64,000 bases of DNA. Source: Dehalococcoidia bacterium (GTDB lineage Bacteria; Chloroflexota; Dehalococcoidia; UBA2979). The translations under genes and the position numbers were made by a program. The notes beneath the pieces were generated by a model. It was not told the DNA's origin and did no database searches. It saw nothing but the letters and a program-made list of their open reading frames with translations. Below are positions 2,578-57,995 of this stretch, piece after piece; positions within the stretch are counted from its first letter, which is position 1, and every line of letters begins with the position of its first letter. The DNA lies in assembly GCA_045562675.1 (NCBI GenBank), contig JBJKVL010000001.1, forward strand, positions 228,804 through 292,803, read 5' to 3'.

Positions 2578-3339
2578 ATGACAATTATTTTAAAATCAGA
2601 TACAGAAATTGAAATCATGAGAGAGTCAGGATTGGTAAATGCTGAGGTAAGAGAAATTATTTTTGATGCTATTGAACCAGGAATAACTGGTAAAGAACTA
2701 GATCAAATTGCAAGAAAAGAAATAGCAGGTAGAGGCGCAACTCCAACTTTTCCAGGCTATGCTCCTTTGGGTAAGCCGCCCTATCCAGGAGCTATATGTT
2801 TTTCAGTTAATGAAAAATTAGTTCATGGTATACCTAATGATTATGCATTACAAGAAGGCGACATAGTGAGTATAGATCTGGGTGTTACCTATAGAAATTT
2901 TGTTTCTGATGCTGCATTCACAAAAGGTGTTGGCAAGATTTCTCAAGTTGCTAGTCAATTAATTGATGTGACTCAAAAAGCAATGCATGCTGGCATTAAC
3001 AAAATGCAAATTGGCAACAAAATAGGTGATATCTCACATGCTATACAAAATTGCTCTTCAGATTTTGGAATTATTAAAGAGTATGGAGGACATGGAGTTG
3101 GACGTGAAATGCACGAAGATCCCCATGTGCCAAATTTTGGTCAACCTAACTCAGGGATACAAATAGTGAAAGGAATGGTTTTGGCAATTGAACCTATGTT
3201 TTCAGTTGGTTCGCCGTCTAATCATGAACATGAAGATCAATGGACCGTTGTTATGGATGATCAATCTCTATCTGCACATTTTGAAGAAACAATTGCGGTG
3301 ACCGATGATGGCCCTTTTGTTTTGACTAGTAAAGATTAA
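2578..3339 (+). CDS. map: type I methionine aminopeptidase
   Basis: 253 aa with MetAP metal-site contexts ([31 protein letters not shown]). Position adk-map-infA. Confidence 0.95.
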
Positions 3340-3746: not shown

Positions 3747-4130
3747 ATGGCAAGAATAGCAGGTGTAGAGATTCCTGATAATAAGCAAGTTGCTTTTTCG
3801 TTAGTCTATATTTATGGCATTGGAAAAACTCTTGCAAATAAAATTATTGAATCAGCAGGAATAGATAAAAATAAATTGGTTAAAGACTTAGATGATAGCG
3901 AATTAGTAAAAATTCGTTCTATTATAGAATCCGATTATGCTGTTGAAGGAGATTTAAGAAGAGAAATCAAATCTAATGTTCAAAGACTTATTGATATCAA
4001 TAGTTATCGGGGCAATCGTCATAAAAAAGGTCTGCCAGTTAGAGGCCAAAGAACAAAAACAAATTCACGTACCAGGCGTACTGGTCCTAGGCAAACTGTT
4101 GCAGGTAAAAGGAGAGTTGGTAGAGCTTAA
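3747..4130 (+). CDS. rpsM: 30S ribosomal protein S13
   Basis: [11 protein letters not shown]-terminus and [20 protein letters not shown] motif. Alpha-operon position. Confidence 0.97.
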
Positions 4131-4218
4131 TAAATAAGAAACTATAATTAGTTAATCAGTTATAGCTCATTAATTGTTTTATTAGTAAGCTTATAATCCT
4201 GGAAAAAATGGAGAAATC

Positions 4219-14280: not shown

Positions 14281-14377
14281 GAGAATGCATGGTGTCCGGT
14301 GGCACTCTTGGTCTTCAAAACTAATGTAAGTTTACGATGTAAGCTTTGGTAGGTTCGACTCCTGCGCATTCTCGCCA
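14281..14377 (+). tRNA. selC: tRNA-Sec (anticodon UCA), CCA encoded
   Basis: Folded by hand.
- 8-bp acceptor stem: GAGAAUGC/GCAUUCUC, then G73 and CCA.
- 6-bp D-stem: GGUGUC/GGCACU, with 4-nt loop CGGU.
- Anticodon arm: UUGGU-CUUCAAA-ACUAA, giving anticodon UCA.
- 8-bp long variable arm: AAGUUUAC-GAU-GUAAGCUU.
- 5-bp T-stem: GUAGG-UUCGACU-CCUGC.
This is the bacterial 8/5 tRNA-Sec architecture. It is similar to E. coli selC in the D-arm and T-arm (recalled from memory). Confidence 0.9.
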
Positions 14378-21088: not shown

Positions 21089-21193
21089 CTCATCATCTAG
21101 AGTGGTGGAGGGAATCGGACCTTAGAAACCACGGCATCCTTAATCAATGAGTTTTGGTGCTACAGCCGACCGAGTATAGTACGGAACGATGAG
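21089..21193 (+). promoter_or_regulatory. SAM-I riboswitch aptamer
   Basis: CUCAUCAUCUAGAGUGGUGGAGGGAAUCGGACCUUAGAAACCACGGCAUCC...UUGGUGCUACAGCCGAC...GAACGAUGAG. The P1 halves CUCAUC/GAUGAG and the conserved AGAG-GGUGGAGGGA, GAAACC-GGCA-CC and GGUGCUA blocks occur in SAM-I order. A GC-rich island in AT-rich DNA, directly 5' of a Met-related operon. Confidence 0.85.
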
Positions 21194-21251
21194 TAGGGTA
21201 ATCCACGAAACATCTTTTGTATTTATTCGTAACATTATTAGATTGGTTATT

Positions 21252-53666: not shown

Positions 53667-54344
53667 TTAATTTATATCAGTAATTGAAATACTAGAATGT
53701 GATTTATATCTACCATTAATTCCAATTAATAATACGGTTAAAAATTCTACATATCTTGAATATCGTAATGGTCCTGCATCTATAGCACGAATCGTTGCAA
53801 TTTCTTCTGATAAATCCATAACAATTTTTTTAGCATCTTTGTTATTACCTGTTACTAAAACATCACCTTCGACATCTACATCTAAATTTTGCAGTATTTC
53901 TGCAGATAAATTGTGAAATGCTCCAATGACTGTTGACGCATCAAGAATTTTTGCTGCCTCTTCTGTTGCTGAACCATCAGGAACATCAATTGATCTAGGT
54001 CCTTTTTGAAATTCCATAGGAACGACTGCATCTATGATGATTTTATTTTCTAAGAATTCTTTAATTTGTTCCAATGTTGACTGGTGAGCAGAATACGGAA
54101 CTACAATAATACAAATTGATGCTTGCTTAGCCATTTCATCATTAGCGCCACCTTCAATAGTTATATTGCTATAATTTTCTTTAAGTTCATTTTTCAATTC
54201 AAGCGCAATTTCCTCTCCTCTTTCTTTATTTCTACTACCTATATAAATTTCATTGCCTGATATAGCAAATCTCTTTGCAAGCCCTTTACCTTCAGGACCT
54301 GTTCCTCCAATTAATGCAATTTTTTTATTCATTTTTTTCTCCAA
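53667..54344 (-). CDS. npdG: NADPH-dependent F420 reductase
   Basis: IALIGGTGPEGKGLAKRFAISGNEIYIGSR Rossmann N-terminus. 225 aa, typical NpdG/Fno size. Adjacent to cofE. Confidence 0.75.
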   Translation of the reverse strand: MEKKMNKKIALIGGTGPEGKGLAKRFAISGNEIYIGSRNKERGEEIALELKNELKENYSNITIEGGANDEMAKQASICIIVVPYSAHQSTLEQIKEFLENKIIIDAVVPMEFQKGPRSIDVPDGSATEEAAKILDASTVIGAFHNLSAEILQNLDVDVEGDVLVTGNNKDAKKIVMDLSEEIATIRAIDAGPLRYSRYVEFLTVLLIGINGRYKSHSSISITDIN

Positions 54345-55929
54345 AACTTAATTTAGCATTACCTATGAAATCATAATTCATAAAAAAATCGACTTCCATA
54401 TTAATAAAATCATTTTCAGTATCAATATTTTCATAGACAATCATTGCTTTACCACTTTTTTTCTTTTTAAAGTCTATATTTTCAGAGTTATATACAACTT
54501 GATCATTTGCATAGACAACAAATGAAAAAATACTGTCATATATTATATTTTCATAATCAAATGATAAGAGGTATCTATCGTTTGATATTTTTTCTAACAT
54601 AAATTTGTTGTAATTAATTTTTGGTATTGTTGTTTGAATGTAAAAGTTATTTTTAGCTTTTAATTGATTATTAACATATATTTCAGTCTGCCAAAAACCT
54701 TCTGGCATGCCTAAAGGAAAAGAAAATCTTAGTACATTTGTAAAGAAAGAGTAATCTCCCTTCCATTTATATGTTGTTGTTATATCTTCTTGCATAATAT
54801 TGTTTAAATACCATCTCTCTTCAATCACATCCCCGCTTTCCAATCCCTGAGTAGCATATTGATAATATAGTTCATATAGCTTTTCATTAAATTGAAAATT
54901 ATAATCATACAAAACCACTCCACCATTCTCATTGATTTTACTAGTACTATAAACGGGATTTGAAATTAGTATATTGTTGATATCTTTTTCTAAAAAGTTA
55001 AATTTATTATTCACGATTGTTACATTTGGAAGTACATTTTCTTTAATTTTTTCTAAAGTTTCATTTGAAAGATGAAAAGAGCTAATTAAAGAAAGAGGAA
55101 AATCTTTGTTATAACTAAGCGAATCGATAAATCCTATAAATTGACCCTGCATATTATACGCTGGAGCACTAAAATAATTATTTGGTAGATTTGCGTTAAT
55201 TGAAATCCATTCAGTATATTGTTTACTAGTTCTACTATATTTACCATTGATTTCTGCAGAGCTTAAATTGATTAATATAGCTCCATCATTTCTAGTTTCG
55301 AAGTTAATTATTTCAATGCTATCATCTATTTTTACATTAATATAATCATTAAATGTAACAATGTTTGTTGATGCTTTAAATTCTTTAACTTTATTTATAT
55401 CTTTTTCTGTAACTTGTAAAAATGTTACATTAAACCTATCTTCATTAATAATTGATGCATCTAATTTTATTTCTTGACTATTGCCTTTATATTGTTGTGA
55501 AATAATGACAGATTGAACTTCATATTCTTTCAAAGTTTCATTAATGCTTAGTAATGATTTACTAATAATGACTATCAATGGGTCCTTATTTATAAGGACG
55601 CCATTGCCTCTTCGTAAAATCTCTTCTTGATTTTTATTTTTCAAATTAATTTCTACATATATTATGCTCAGCGCCCTCTGCAGTATTGAAGGATTTAACT
55701 CTCCCTTATCTATTGAATTGTTTTTATTAATCAAATCTTTGGAAGGCAAAAGTGGTTGCAATGTAGGAATTTTATCTTGCTTAATCTGAGAAATTATTTT
55801 TTCTTCTTCATTTATTGATTCATCGGGAATTAATTTAGCAATTGGCTTACATCCAATAATTATAAGCATAGACAGGAATAACATGGTTAAAATTTTATTA
55901 TCTATATCTTTTAACATAAATTTTTCCAC
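54325..55929 (-). CDS. lipoprotein of unknown function (possible degenerate trypsin-like N-terminal half)
   Basis: Lipobox LIIIG-C. RGNGVLINKDPLIVI and GQFIGFIDS recall S1C protease strands, but I could not find a His/Asp/Ser triad. Overlaps the npdG start by 20 nt. Confidence 0.5.
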   Translation of the reverse strand: MEKFMLKDIDNKILTMLFLSMLIIIGCKPIAKLIPDESINEEEKIISQIKQDKIPTLQPLLPSKDLINKNNSIDKGELNPSILQRALSIIYVEINLKNKNQEEILRRGNGVLINKDPLIVIISKSLLSINETLKEYEVQSVIISQQYKGNSQEIKLDASIINEDRFNVTFLQVTEKDINKVKEFKASTNIVTFNDYINVKIDDSIEIINFETRNDGAILINLSSAEINGKYSRTSKQYTEWISINANLPNNYFSAPAYNMQGQFIGFIDSLSYNKDFPLSLISSFHLSNETLEKIKENVLPNVTIVNNKFNFLEKDINNILISNPVYSTSKINENGGVVLYDYNFQFNEKLYELYYQYATQGLESGDVIEERWYLNNIMQEDITTTYKWKGDYSFFTNVLRFSFPLGMPEGFWQTEIYVNNQLKAKNNFYIQTTIPKINYNKFMLEKISNDRYLLSFDYENIIYDSIFSFVVYANDQVVYNSENIDFKKKKSGKAMIVYENIDTENDFINMEVDFFMNYDFIGNAKLSFGEKNE

Positions 55930-56059
55930 TACTATAAAACATATCTTATCAATTAGTAATAATTATAACTTGATTTTTTTTTATTGTTTAGTTTAAACTT
56001 AATCATGAAATGGGTGCAGTGAAGTAGTTTATTCAAATTAGCCTAATTTTTAGATGCTG

Positions 56060-56198
56060 CACTTACTAAAAAACGGAGGAACCATTTCGGGGTGAACTCA
56101 ATTTGAGCGGGTGACTGTTCCATCCGAATCCGTCAGCTAACTTCGTAGGCTATTGAACAGACCGAATGCCGGTGGGGTGCCGGGCTTGGAGGTCTGTG
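56060..56198 (+). promoter_or_regulatory. c-di-AMP riboswitch (ydaO-yuaA class) with SD-sequestering hairpin
   Basis: Conserved blocks occur in ydaO order: ACGGAGGAACCA, GGGGUGAAC, CCGAAUCCGUCAGCUAACUUCGUAGGC. The last is near-identical to B. subtilis ydaO CCGAAUCCGUCAGCUAACCUCGUAAGC (recalled). The outer helix CUUAC/GUAGG closes it. A downstream hairpin CAGACC(56158-63)...GGUCUG(56191-96) overlaps the GGAGG SD (56188-92). Confidence 0.85.
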
Positions 56199-56411
56199 AT
56201 GGTTTATACATTACCCCCTAAATTATGTCCTAGATGTAGTGGCTTTATGCTTGCAGAAGATGATACCTATGGTGAATTTTCTACATGTGTACAGTGTGGA
56301 TTTGTTCATGAAAATGAAGTAGCTGATCCTGCTGATATTAAGAAGGAAGAAGAGTTAGCCTTCGGTAAGCTGCGTCGAAGACAACCGTCTCATGGTAAAT
56401 TAAGATTATAA
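56199..56411 (+). CDS. 70-aa C4 zinc-ribbon protein with basic C-terminal tail
   Basis: ATG 56199 lies 6 nt after GGAGG. MVYTLPPKLCPRCSGFML...CVQCGFVHE...KLRRRQPSHGKLRL. The ORF-track start 56166 lies inside the riboswitch platform. Confidence 0.65.
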   Translation: MVYTLPPKLCPRCSGFMLAEDDTYGEFSTCVQCGFVHENEVADPADIKKEEELAFGKLRRRQPSHGKLRL

Positions 56412-56420
56412 TTTTTTCTA

Positions 56421-57995
56421 TTATTGATTAATTAACCAATATTCATAAGAATCTTGTAATGCAAGGAATGATGCTTCTATGACATCTGTAGAAGAGCCTA
56501 CAGTGCTCCATGATGTTTTGTTGTCTGATGATTCAATAAATACTCTAACACCTGCTGCAGAACCTTGTGACGGATCAAATATTCTCACTTTATAATCAAT
56601 TAGATGTATATTGACTAAATCAGGGTAAAAATTGATTAATGCATCTTTTAATGCTGAATCTAATGCAGCAACTGGTCCACTACCATTTGCTGATGATTGA
56701 TAAAATTCTTTTCCTACCTTTACTTTAACCATAGCATCAGATAGTATTGCACCAATTTCATTGTCTGTATTAGGTTGTTTTCGCTCAACTACAAGAAAAT
56801 CTTCTACAGAAAAAGGGCTTTGATAATTTTCTTTTATCTTTCTCACCACAAGTTCAAAAGACGCACCCGCAGCTTCAAATTGCATACCTTTTGCTTCTAA
56901 ATTTTTTATCTTTCCTAATATATCTTCTATTTCATTATTTGATAAATCTAGATTAATATTTTGTTCTTTAATTTTTTCCTGAATATTTCTTCTTCCTGAA
57001 AATTCTGATACTAATATTCTTTCTTGATTTCCAACTAGAGAAGGCTCAATGTGAGTGTATGTACCTGAGGATTTTGTAATTGCTGCTACATGTAAGCCGG
57101 CTTTATGTGCAAAAGCACTCTTGCCTACATATGGTTGCCTGTTGTTAGGTATAATATTGGCTAATTCATCAGCAAAATGAGACACTTTAGTTAGTTCTTC
57201 TAATTGTTTATCCGTGATGATTTCAAAACCAAGTTTTAATTTGAGATTTGCAATTACTGAGATTATATTTGCATTACCAGTTCTTTCTCCCCAACCATTT
57301 AAACAAGCTTGAACATGCGTTGCTCCACTTTCTACAGCAATAATAGTATTTGCAACTGCCATGTCAGCATCATTATGAACATGAATACCGATTTCTCCAA
57401 GATTTAAATTTATTACTTTTTCAGTTATTTGTTTGATTTCCATTGGCATTGTTCCACCATTTGTATCACATAAAACAATTGCTTCTGCGCCAGCATCTGA
57501 TGCTGCTTTTACAGTGGATAAAGCATAATCTTCATTTTCTTTAAAGCCATCAAAAAAATGTTCTGCATCAAAAATAATTTTTCTTTTTTTTGATGCAAGA
57601 TATTCAATAGAATCTTTGATCATTGAAATATTTTCCTCATCTGTAGTTTGCAATACTTTATTAACCTGGCTCAAAGAAGATTTACCAACGATTGTTAAAT
57701 AGTTTGTCTTTGCATCAATTAGTGCTTGTAGCGATTCGTCTTCTTTTGGATTAGTATTAGCTTTACGAGTTGAACCAAATGCTACCATTTTAGCATTTTT
57801 CAATTTAATCTCTTGAACTGAATCAAAAAATGCAGCATCTTTTGGGTTTGATCCTGGAAAACCACCTTCAATGAAATCAATACCTAAGCTGTCAAGTTTT
57901 TTCACAATTTCAATCTTGTCTTTTAAAGACAAAGAAATACCTTCCATGCCTAATCCATCTCTTAGAGTTGTGTCATACAATTTTATTTTTTTCAA
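56421..57995 (-). CDS. cimA: citramalate synthase
   Basis: 524 aa. LYDTTLRDGLGMEG with HVHNDADMA metal site. Long C-terminal regulatory domain typical of CimA-type LeuA homologues. Second LeuA-family gene in the cluster. Confidence 0.8.
   Translation of the reverse strand: MKKIKLYDTTLRDGLGMEGISLSLKDKIEIVKKLDSLGIDFIEGGFPGSNPKDAAFFDSVQEIKLKNAKMVAFGSTRKANTNPKEDESLQALIDAKTNYLTIVGKSSLSQVNKVLQTTDEENISMIKDSIEYLASKKRKIIFDAEHFFDGFKENEDYALSTVKAASDAGAEAIVLCDTNGGTMPMEIKQITEKVINLNLGEIGIHVHNDADMAVANTIIAVESGATHVQACLNGWGERTGNANIISVIANLKLKLGFEIITDKQLEELTKVSHFADELANIIPNNRQPYVGKSAFAHKAGLHVAAITKSSGTYTHIEPSLVGNQERILVSEFSGRRNIQEKIKEQNINLDLSNNEIEDILGKIKNLEAKGMQFEAAGASFELVVRKIKENYQSPFSVEDFLVVERKQPNTDNEIGAILSDAMVKVKVGKEFYQSSANGSGPVAALDSALKDALINFYPDLVNIHLIDYKVRIFDPSQGSAAGVRVFIESSDNKTSWSTVGSSTDVIEASFLALQDSYEYWLINQ

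Follow-up and report, generated by a model that had tools for sequence, protein, structure and literature searches.

We describe here a cyclic di-AMP (c-di-AMP) riboswitch, and the small gene that it precedes, in a 64,000-nucleotide stretch of DNA from a Dehalococcoidia bacterium of the phylum Chloroflexota (GenBank assembly GCA_045562675.1, contig JBJKVL010000001.1, positions 228,804 to 292,803). This whole stretch is referred to as the window, and all coordinates are counted from its first nucleotide. On the plus strand an aptamer of the ydaO class, including its 3' pseudoknot tail, occupies positions 56030-56167 and is followed at 56199-56411 by the gene for a 70-amino-acid zinc-ribbon protein, which ends in the stop codon TAA (56409-56411). 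The next gene downstream is convergent and encodes citramalate synthase (cimA; TIGR00977 at 654 bits, cutoff 450). Since this gene converges on it, the 70-amino-acid gene is the sole gene downstream of the riboswitch, and it is monocistronic. An earlier note, made by a model from the sequence alone, had already described a lone zinc ribbon facing cimA; only its distance to the cimA stop codon needs adjustment, from 10 to 9 nucleotides (56412-56420).

The assignment of the RNA to the ydaO class, also made in that note, is borne out by the RF00379 search that the note had proposed. This Rfam covariance model matched the window with 74.0 bits (gathering score 38, E value 2.6e-15) over its full length, model positions 1-134 of 134. 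A purpose-built covariance model, for which 22 confirmed aptamers served as the seed and which was run on all loci gathered by then, scored the window aptamer at 102 bits and gave one match per locus, directly 5' of the open reading frame (ORF), in 85 of 87 sources. In the resulting 85-locus alignment standard pairs fill 96.9% of cells and changes on both sides are seen in 17 of the 32 pairs, with a covariation score of 0.374 compared with 0.164 for shuffled and at most 0.107 for slid partners. Helix P1, in which GCCU (56041-56044) pairs with AGGC (56147-56150) according to the Rfam alignment, is paired in 98.7% of cases and has two covarying pairs. The pseudoknot is formed between the loop CUGUUC (56115-56120) of the helix CGGGUG...CAUCCG and the tail strand GAACAG (56155-56160). 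Loop and tail vary together by lineage (ACUGGAUC/GAUCCAGU, UCUGCUC/GAGCAG and GCCUCCGC/GCGGUAGGC, for example), and duplexes between cognate loops and tails have a mean energy of -11.3 kcal/mol, compared with -8.4 kcal/mol for non-cognate combinations (permutation p 1e-4).

The sequence blocks typical of RF00379, ACGG(A/G)GGAACC, GGGGUGAA and CCGAAyCCGUCAGCUAAC, occur in the same order in the window, and the block CCGAAUCCGUCAGCUAACUUCGUAGGC, which the earlier note had cited, maps to 56124-56150. As described there, they lie in a GC-rich island within an AT-rich window, with a GC content of 0.51 at 56050-56199 against 0.21-0.30 in the flanks. The note's starting point for the element, 56060, is too far downstream: the aptamer begins about 30 nucleotides earlier, and a start at 56060 cuts off the 5' strand of P1 (56041-56044) and the first helix. 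Like other members of the class, the RNA has a loop-to-3'-tail pseudoknot and lies in a 5' leader, and every defining feature of sequence and structure that we examined was present. Judged by homology and covariation, the c-di-AMP riboswitch aptamer at 56030-56167 is complete, lacking neither a helix nor the pseudoknot, and it belongs to a known class of RNA. Riboswitches of this class bind two molecules of c-di-AMP.

The gene downstream of the aptamer encodes the product MVYTLPPKLCPRCSGFMLAEDDTYGEFSTCVQCGFVHENEVADPADIKKEEELAFGKLRRRQPSHGKLRL. Its ATG at 56199 is preceded by the Shine-Dalgarno (SD) sequence GGAGG (56188-56192) with a spacer of 6 nucleotides, as the earlier note had it. Of the 82 listed loci, most have the start codon (ATG or GTG) 9 codons ahead of the CPRC motif and seven have it 10 codons ahead, and this conserved position favours 56199 over an upstream ATG at 56166. 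A search of 5.8 billion proteins gave 33 clusters of homologues, mostly 66-70 amino acids in length. In their alignment R12, C13, G15, D22, C30, C33, G34, R59 and R61-G66 are invariant, and at least 90% of sequences retain C10, R60 and K67-L70. Among 83 unique ORFs of 213 nucleotides, codon position 3 holds 60% of the differences and single-base codon differences are synonymous in 74590 cases and non-synonymous in 17569; a comparison of the window with one related locus, L007, gives 25 synonymous and 4 non-synonymous codon differences. Each residue of the C-terminal tail RRRQPSHGKLRL is encoded by 2-6 synonymous codons in these ORFs and the amino acid is fixed, so that the constraint must act on the peptide. 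The earlier note had considered that the ORF might turn out not to be conserved as a protein; in our data synonymous changes far exceed non-synonymous ones. From this codon pattern we conclude that 56199-56411 is a real gene and that its protein is under strong purifying selection.

The family is poorly represented in public annotation. NCBI labels the gene as a hypothetical protein and often does not annotate it, and some copies carry the generic JGI/IMG names zinc ribbon, ribosomal protein S27AE or RNA polymerase subunit M/TFIIS. Many gene calls (clusters P0001 and P0003) are mis-started: there are 54-amino-acid versions that begin at M17 and lose the first CxxC, and calls of 81-86 amino acids that begin within the riboswitch platform. 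Many members of these two clusters have neither a name nor an accession. Because public annotations so often miss or mis-start the gene, the family is at present effectively invisible.

The association between riboswitch and gene is widespread. A scan of one genome per species found the tail motif encoded in 407 species. The 80 best of these were fetched, nearly all of them Chloroflexota or Dehalococcoidia metagenome-assembled genomes and the closest 94% identical, and the aptamer is present in all 80. The earlier note had asked if homologues elsewhere also carry a ydaO leader, and they do, in the fetched genomes and in distant clades alike. Overall the pair was verified with the covariance model in 92 of the 102 loci examined, including clades near the clusters P0027 (52% identity), P0020 and P0005, which span 52-61% identity. 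Ten other metagenome contigs that were fetched, several Tara Oceans contigs among them, carry exactly the window leader, indicating that the organism belongs to a common marine lineage. A metagenome scan added two close relatives and a distant one, no more, and a viral-contig scan gave one weak relative only. These comparisons of sequence establish that the RNA-gene pair is conserved across the Chloroflexota phylum.

The riboswitch is absent from some homologues. In a chromosomal clade with the motif AESDAHG, here called the AESDAHG clade (clusters P0018/P0019; loci L005/L006 at 4001-4210 and L091-L093 at 3001-3210), with about 49% identity, protein and tail are kept and no Rfam match was found at E <= 1 within 1 kb. 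This clade has a conserved TTGACA promoter-like box about 120 nucleotides 5' of the gene, and it has PIG-L, NUDIX, LexA and ThyX neighbours in common with some riboswitch-bearing loci. Nor was a riboswitch found at a phage-like copy next to RecT, at the weak viral relative or at the genes of long fusion proteins. The RecT-adjacent copy (L094, positions 2727-3038 of a contig from Logan SRR13378648) encodes a 103-amino-acid homologue with the tail GKLRRRQPSHGKLRL and lies among 13 small ORFs on the same strand directly 5' of the RecT recombinase gene, in what resembles the early region of a phage or prophage. Cobalamin riboswitches (RF00174) were seen on the minus strand 0.3-2.7 kb 5' of the ORF at seven loci (L015, L034, L038, L039, L041, L045 and L064), and at L001-L004 a cobT/cobS/cobU cluster lies on the strand opposite the c-di-AMP leader.

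The end of the window aptamer and the ATG are 33 nucleotides apart, and the RNA here is predicted to form a platform hairpin in which ACAGACC (56157-56163), an anti-SD sequence, pairs with GGUCUGU (56191-56197). Its folding energy is -19.2 kcal/mol for the platform alone and -26.9 kcal/mol with flanking pairs. The CAGACC/GGUCUG hairpin of the earlier note is therefore real; its 3' arm covers the last two G of GGAGG and the spacer, not the entire SD sequence as the note had implied. The 7-base-pair run against the gene's own initiation region has a P of about 0.05 against shuffles and ranks 0 among non-cognate partners. Neither arm varies among 8 unique leaders of the marine clade, whereas nearby unpaired bases do, as does the inner hairpin GCCGG-UGGGGUG-CCGGGC (56168-56185) that the platform hairpin encloses. 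This inner hairpin is kept as CCGG...CCGG in most clades, and in distant clades it is the upper stem of a terminator-like hairpin. Its loop is purine-rich and SD-like in most Dehalococcoidia clades (L007-L086), with sequences such as CGGGAUG, AGGGAUU and UGGGGUG.

A feature that the earlier note had not mentioned is that the 5' arm of this hairpin overlaps the pseudoknot. The bases ACAG belong both to the 3' strand of the pseudoknot (56155-56160) and to the hairpin arm (56157-56163), and because both structures need these bases they are mutually exclusive; the hairpin is thus most likely the ligand-free state. Once the pseudoknot strand is blocked, the platform energy changes from -19.2 to -11.1 kcal/mol and a weak CCGA:UUGG helix alone remains at or near the SD sequence. 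The SD sequence itself (56188-56192) sits 28 nucleotides 3' of the pseudoknot strand and so outside it, and no terminator-like site is present in 55850-56500, so that neither platform feature of the characterised OFF switches, a terminator or an SD sequence within the pseudoknot strand, is found in the window; these features belong to the known platforms and do not define the aptamer class. With no intrinsic terminator after the aptamer, the window is best read as having control at the level of translation initiation, in agreement with the earlier note, which had preferred translational control to termination.

These observations suggest the following mechanism, in which control would act on translation initiation. 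When c-di-AMP is absent, the tail ACAGACC would pair with GGUCUGU, hiding the 3' half of the SD sequence and the spacer. When c-di-AMP is bound, the aptamer would take GAACAG into the pseudoknot and thereby remove four of the seven hairpin pairs. Loss of the hairpin would free the SD sequence, and the protein would be produced at high c-di-AMP. That c-di-AMP switches translation ON in the window is the best-supported reading of the sequence, and we consider it somewhat more probable than not. In the characterised translational c-di-AMP riboswitch of Thermoanaerobacter pseudethanolicus the SD sequence lies within the pseudoknot strand and is hidden by the ligand, which gives an OFF switch (PMC11963983). 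In the window, by contrast, the pseudoknot strand is the anti-SD and not the carrier of the SD sequence, and the opposite output is therefore predicted. The engineered ON-riboCdA (Sci Adv 2025, PMC11963983) has an added stem-loop that hides the SD sequence until the pseudoknot driven by c-di-AMP displaces one arm, which frees the SD sequence and the start codon. The window has the same strand-displacement topology, and unlike the synthetic switch it is natural and conserved in a marine Dehalococcoidia clade. The layout corresponds to that of an engineered ON switch and is the reverse of the natural OFF switches described (PMC11963983). It also differs from the Bacillus subtilis ydaO/kimA leader in having no terminator.

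In other lineages the 3' region of the pseudoknot likewise pairs with a segment further downstream, but through other sequences. The SD sequence is covered by CCAGUCUC/GGGGCUGG in the L010 group and by CAGCCC/GGGCUG in L052. Elsewhere the pairing lies just 5' of the start codon (AGCAGCC/GGCUGCU, L073), overlaps a GUG start (CAGCC/GGCUG, L057 group) or covers the start codon and codons 2-5 (GAAAGGAC/GUCCUUUC, L096). In two further loci it is located just 5' of the SD sequence (UCUGGAU/AUCCAGA in L079 and CCGGAUC/GAUCCGG in L035). Blocking the pseudoknot strand raised the modelled accessibility of the ribosome-binding site (RBS) by more than 0.1 in 19 of 74 lineages, lowered it in 6 and left it unchanged in 49. 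A CAG-plus-4 tail segment is complementary to the initiation region at P<0.05 in 13 of 70 lineages, so occlusion of the SD sequence by this exact segment is not universal.

Several results weigh against the proposed mechanism or against parts of it. Mean modelled RBS accessibility barely shifts (0.44 with the pseudoknot strand free, 0.48 with it blocked), and the competing helix is not significantly better in cognate than in non-cognate combinations by duplex energy (p 0.12) and only borderline so by longest helix (p 0.051); the former result arises because the tail, CAG(G)CCC, and the SD sequence, GGAGGG, are each conserved. A convincing helix is missing in about half of the lineages, and in clades of the L079 type the 3' arm is just 5' of the SD sequence and not over it. 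In the window's own marine clade there is no covariation, since the hairpin arms never vary in the 8 unique leaders. The covariation of the platform hairpin in relatives, a check proposed in the earlier note, thus gives a divided answer, with lineage-specific helices and a p of 0.051 across clades and invariant arms within the marine one. Two distant loci, L087 and L095, have a hairpin after the pseudoknot strand followed by U6, which is terminator-like and whose logic can be read either way. Finally, natural c-di-AMP riboswitches have been described as inherently OFF (PMC11963983), and a review places ydaO among the riboswitches in which the ligand promotes docking and the RBS is thereby occluded (PMC10907184).

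The last two points lead to the alternative that best survives, a classical OFF switch in which c-di-AMP represses the gene and the platform hairpin is present in both states or is even strengthened by the aptamer in its bound form. Termination would then be promoted by c-di-AMP in those clades that have a terminator, and this would fit both the published descriptions (PMC11963983, PMC10907184) and the hairpin with U6 that follows the aptamer in L087 and L095, where weak antiterminator pairings of the 3' pseudoknot region with the loop of the terminator are possible by eye. The borderline statistic for the competing helix is also compatible with this alternative. In the window, however, docking of the known kind cannot hide the SD sequence, which lies outside the pseudoknot strand, and the SD region has a single strong partner, ACAGACC, four of whose seven bases are in the pseudoknot strand; with that strand blocked, only the weak CCGA:UUGG helix touches the SD sequence. 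The L087 terminator stem itself overlaps the pseudoknot strand by two bases. We regard repression by c-di-AMP as possible, although clearly less probable than activation.

A further alternative is that the riboswitch acts mainly on elongation or RNA stability, through Rho-dependent termination or RNase access, and that the SD hairpin is incidental. Control of this type has been proposed for actinobacterial ydaO leaders without terminators. The window likewise has no intrinsic terminator, roughly half of the lineages have no convincing helix over the SD sequence or AUG, and the inner hairpin is conserved without an evident SD-occluding role. Against this, the 33 nucleotides between aptamer and start codon leave little space for Rho loading, the hairpin arms of the marine clade are invariant while adjacent unpaired bases vary, and several clades cover the SD sequence or AUG by sequences specific to their lineage. 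Such control therefore seems improbable in the window. Finally, that the small ORF is fortuitous and that the RNA has a different target or a role in trans, as the hypothetical, often missing and mis-started (54- or 81-amino-acid) gene calls might suggest, can be rejected with near certainty, given the excess of synonymous changes (25 to 4 against L007, 60% of changes at position 3), the conservation of length, start and tail over 33 clusters and 407 species, and the downstream gene that converges on the ORF.

The protein consists of a C4 zinc ribbon (C10-P-R-C13...C30-V-Q-C33, 56226-56297), an acidic helix and the C-terminal peptide RRRQPSHGKLRL (R59-RRQPSHGKLR-L70, 56373-56408). The CPRC and CVQC motifs described in the earlier note are present and are separated by 16 residues rather than 18. 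What the note called a basic tail is indeed basic, and it is more than a basic stretch, being a nearly invariant and strictly C-terminal 12-mer. An AlphaFold2 model built from a 32-sequence alignment (mean predicted local distance difference test score, pLDDT, 72) places strands at 16-22, 25-30 and 36-38 (pLDDT 78-85), a helix at 44-54 and then a coil tail, so that the four ligands C10, C13, C30 and C33 are carried by a predicted three-stranded ribbon (residues 16-38, pLDDT about 80). The homology searches that the note had recommended gave generic zinc-ribbon matches, all of them below threshold. No significant family or structure match was found with Pfam, NCBIfam, PDB searches by profile and single sequence or Foldseek, and this too counts against a functional assignment of the kind proposed below. 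The nearest sequence matches are the ribbons of TFIIB, RpoM and RPC10; PF08271, the TFIIB ribbon, scored 23.4 bits (cutoff 29), and TFIIB was matched in PDB with E values of 0.004 (1pft, sequence search) and 0.005 (profile search). A Foldseek search of the model against PDB gave nothing at E <= 0.001; ZifS (8yoz, E 0.049) was the best match, ahead of the ribbons of RPC10, TFIIB and topoisomerase I.

The protein thus resembles the ribbons of TFIIB, TFS, RPB9 and RPC10 (PF08271 and relatives), its best matches in sequence and fold, in having a three-stranded CxxC...CxxC ribbon. It differs from them in its sub-threshold scores, its bacterial host and two parts that those families do not have, an acidic helix and a basic C-terminal peptide that is invariant. 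ZifS (TTHA0897) of Thermus thermophilus is similarly a small stand-alone bacterial zinc protein of 77-79 amino acids, and its Foldseek alignment covers 51 columns at 27% identity (E 0.049, TM score 0.42); it had no sequence match in profile or single-sequence searches. The LysW amino-group carriers are also tiny zinc ribbons with a conserved tail at the extreme C-terminus (weak matches, E 0.13 and E 0.098). The tail of LysW is acidic (EDWGE) and its gene lies in lysine or arginine biosynthesis operons, whereas the window tail is basic and the gene stands alone. Ribosomal protein S27ae/eS31 was considered and rejected, as NF001669 scored 18.1 bits against a cutoff of 54 and the PDB matches (E 0.013-0.1) comprise the ribbon only. 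The QPS...HG of the tail is reminiscent of bL34; no Ribosomal_L34 match was found in Pfam and NCBIfam scans of the protein.

A profile search of 1.84 billion representatives gave 1855 matches at E <= 1e-3, of which 87 reached E <= 1e-10. Many of the matches are long proteins with the ribbon and tail at the extreme C-terminus. Their N-terminal part is built of a module, NPWxL(D/T)xxExT(I/L)L..R...G.S..E(T/I)A..LY, present in at least one copy and with up to three copies aligned. In PDB searches with a profile of this module (A5), 15 of the 20 top matches were helix-turn-helix (HTH) domains of the LuxR/GerE/ECF sigma region 4 type (best DevR, E 0.002), and Pfam Sigma70_r4 and Sigma70_r4_2 were matched below threshold in 4 of 17 modules. 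The E values behind the HTH assignment are marginal (0.002-1), which is a weakness of the argument that follows. Ribbon-plus-tail fusions of 189-736 amino acids include P0044, P0045, P0047, P0053, P0066, P0090, P0115 and P0128 (loci L099 and L100), and P0045 has a long Ala/Arg/Gln-rich stretch that looks like a coiled coil. None of these proteins gave a significant Pfam match, apart from a ribbon match below threshold.

From these sequences, ribbon and tail form a portable C-terminal module of what are probably DNA-binding transcription proteins. Their fusion to HTH modules favours docking linked to transcription for the stand-alone protein as well, and lends some indirect support to the suggestion in the earlier note of a factor associated with polymerase or nucleic acid. 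The free C-terminal peptide of the module would plug into a highly conserved partner, most likely a part of the transcription machinery, and the stand-alone protein would relay the c-di-AMP state to gene expression. The retention of the protein in the AESDAHG clade, which has no riboswitch, counts against this role. We put it forward, a docking module relaying c-di-AMP state to what is likely the transcription machinery, as a tentative one that may well prove wrong.

The stop codons of the family are also unusual. Among 100 unique ORFs TAG is used 61 times, TAA 36 times and TGA 3 times. In GC-rich loci TGA ends none of 75 zinc-ribbon genes, compared with 152 of 308 control ORFs (49%) of at least 250 amino acids from the same loci (Fisher p 1e-19, uncorrected for phylogeny). 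Both TAG and TAA occur in each of the two largest protein clusters, and they alternate repeatedly within clades; the single cluster with a TGA majority is a fusion protein. The pattern suggests that selection acts on the way in which translation of the invariant tail ends. One possibility is that an exact free C-terminus is needed and that read-through of a leaky UGA has for this reason been disfavoured; the other is that the tail works in part through termination by release factor 1.

Elsewhere in the window, a 534-amino-acid ORF (54325-55929, minus strand) lies divergently and directly upstream of the riboswitch; it has no NCBIfam match, and its counterpart in the marine relatives L105-L119 is a neighbour of 529-530 amino acids. 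A tRNA-Sec gene is located at 14281-14373 (RF01852, 63.6 bits), indicating that this Dehalococcoidia lineage decodes selenocysteine. A SAM-I riboswitch is found at 21090-21195 on the plus strand (RF00162, 59.4 bits).

The known regulon of c-di-AMP riboswitches is made up of transporters for potassium and osmolytes and of enzymes of the cell wall. The window product is neither a transporter, an osmolyte system nor a cell-wall enzyme and, as the earlier note had remarked of a small zinc ribbon, does not fit the usual cargo of RF00379. In the literature that we searched there was no report tying ydaO/c-di-AMP riboswitches to Chloroflexota or to a zinc-ribbon cargo, although the original ydaO gene lists may hold an earlier mention. 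Three features are new here: the cargo itself, which is a small, unannotated protein found throughout the phylum and ending in an invariant peptide; how tightly RNA and gene are paired; and, as predicted from the sequence, a platform wired in the reverse of the characterised natural c-di-AMP riboswitches. Taken together, the conserved pair of aptamer and gene, ON control and a docking protein are the best explanation overall, and we would give this combination an even chance of being correct. A bolder version is that this is a natural ON c-di-AMP riboswitch, which would be the first in this class, driving a phylum-wide 70-amino-acid effector whose RRRQPSHGKLRL plugs into a core machine, either RNA polymerase or, in view of the avoidance of UGA stops, the terminating ribosome with release factor 1. 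We offer it as a speculation that is improbable as a whole.

Used as bait, the 12-residue invariant peptide offers a very practical route to a conserved partner. Should the ON reading be true, the window would hold a natural ON sensor of c-di-AMP, wired as engineers had to devise, and a new branch of c-di-AMP output in a large and little-studied phylum that includes abundant marine lineages. If the bolder proposal is also true, the Chloroflexota would use c-di-AMP to reprogramme gene expression globally, by way of a tiny protein and not of transporters.

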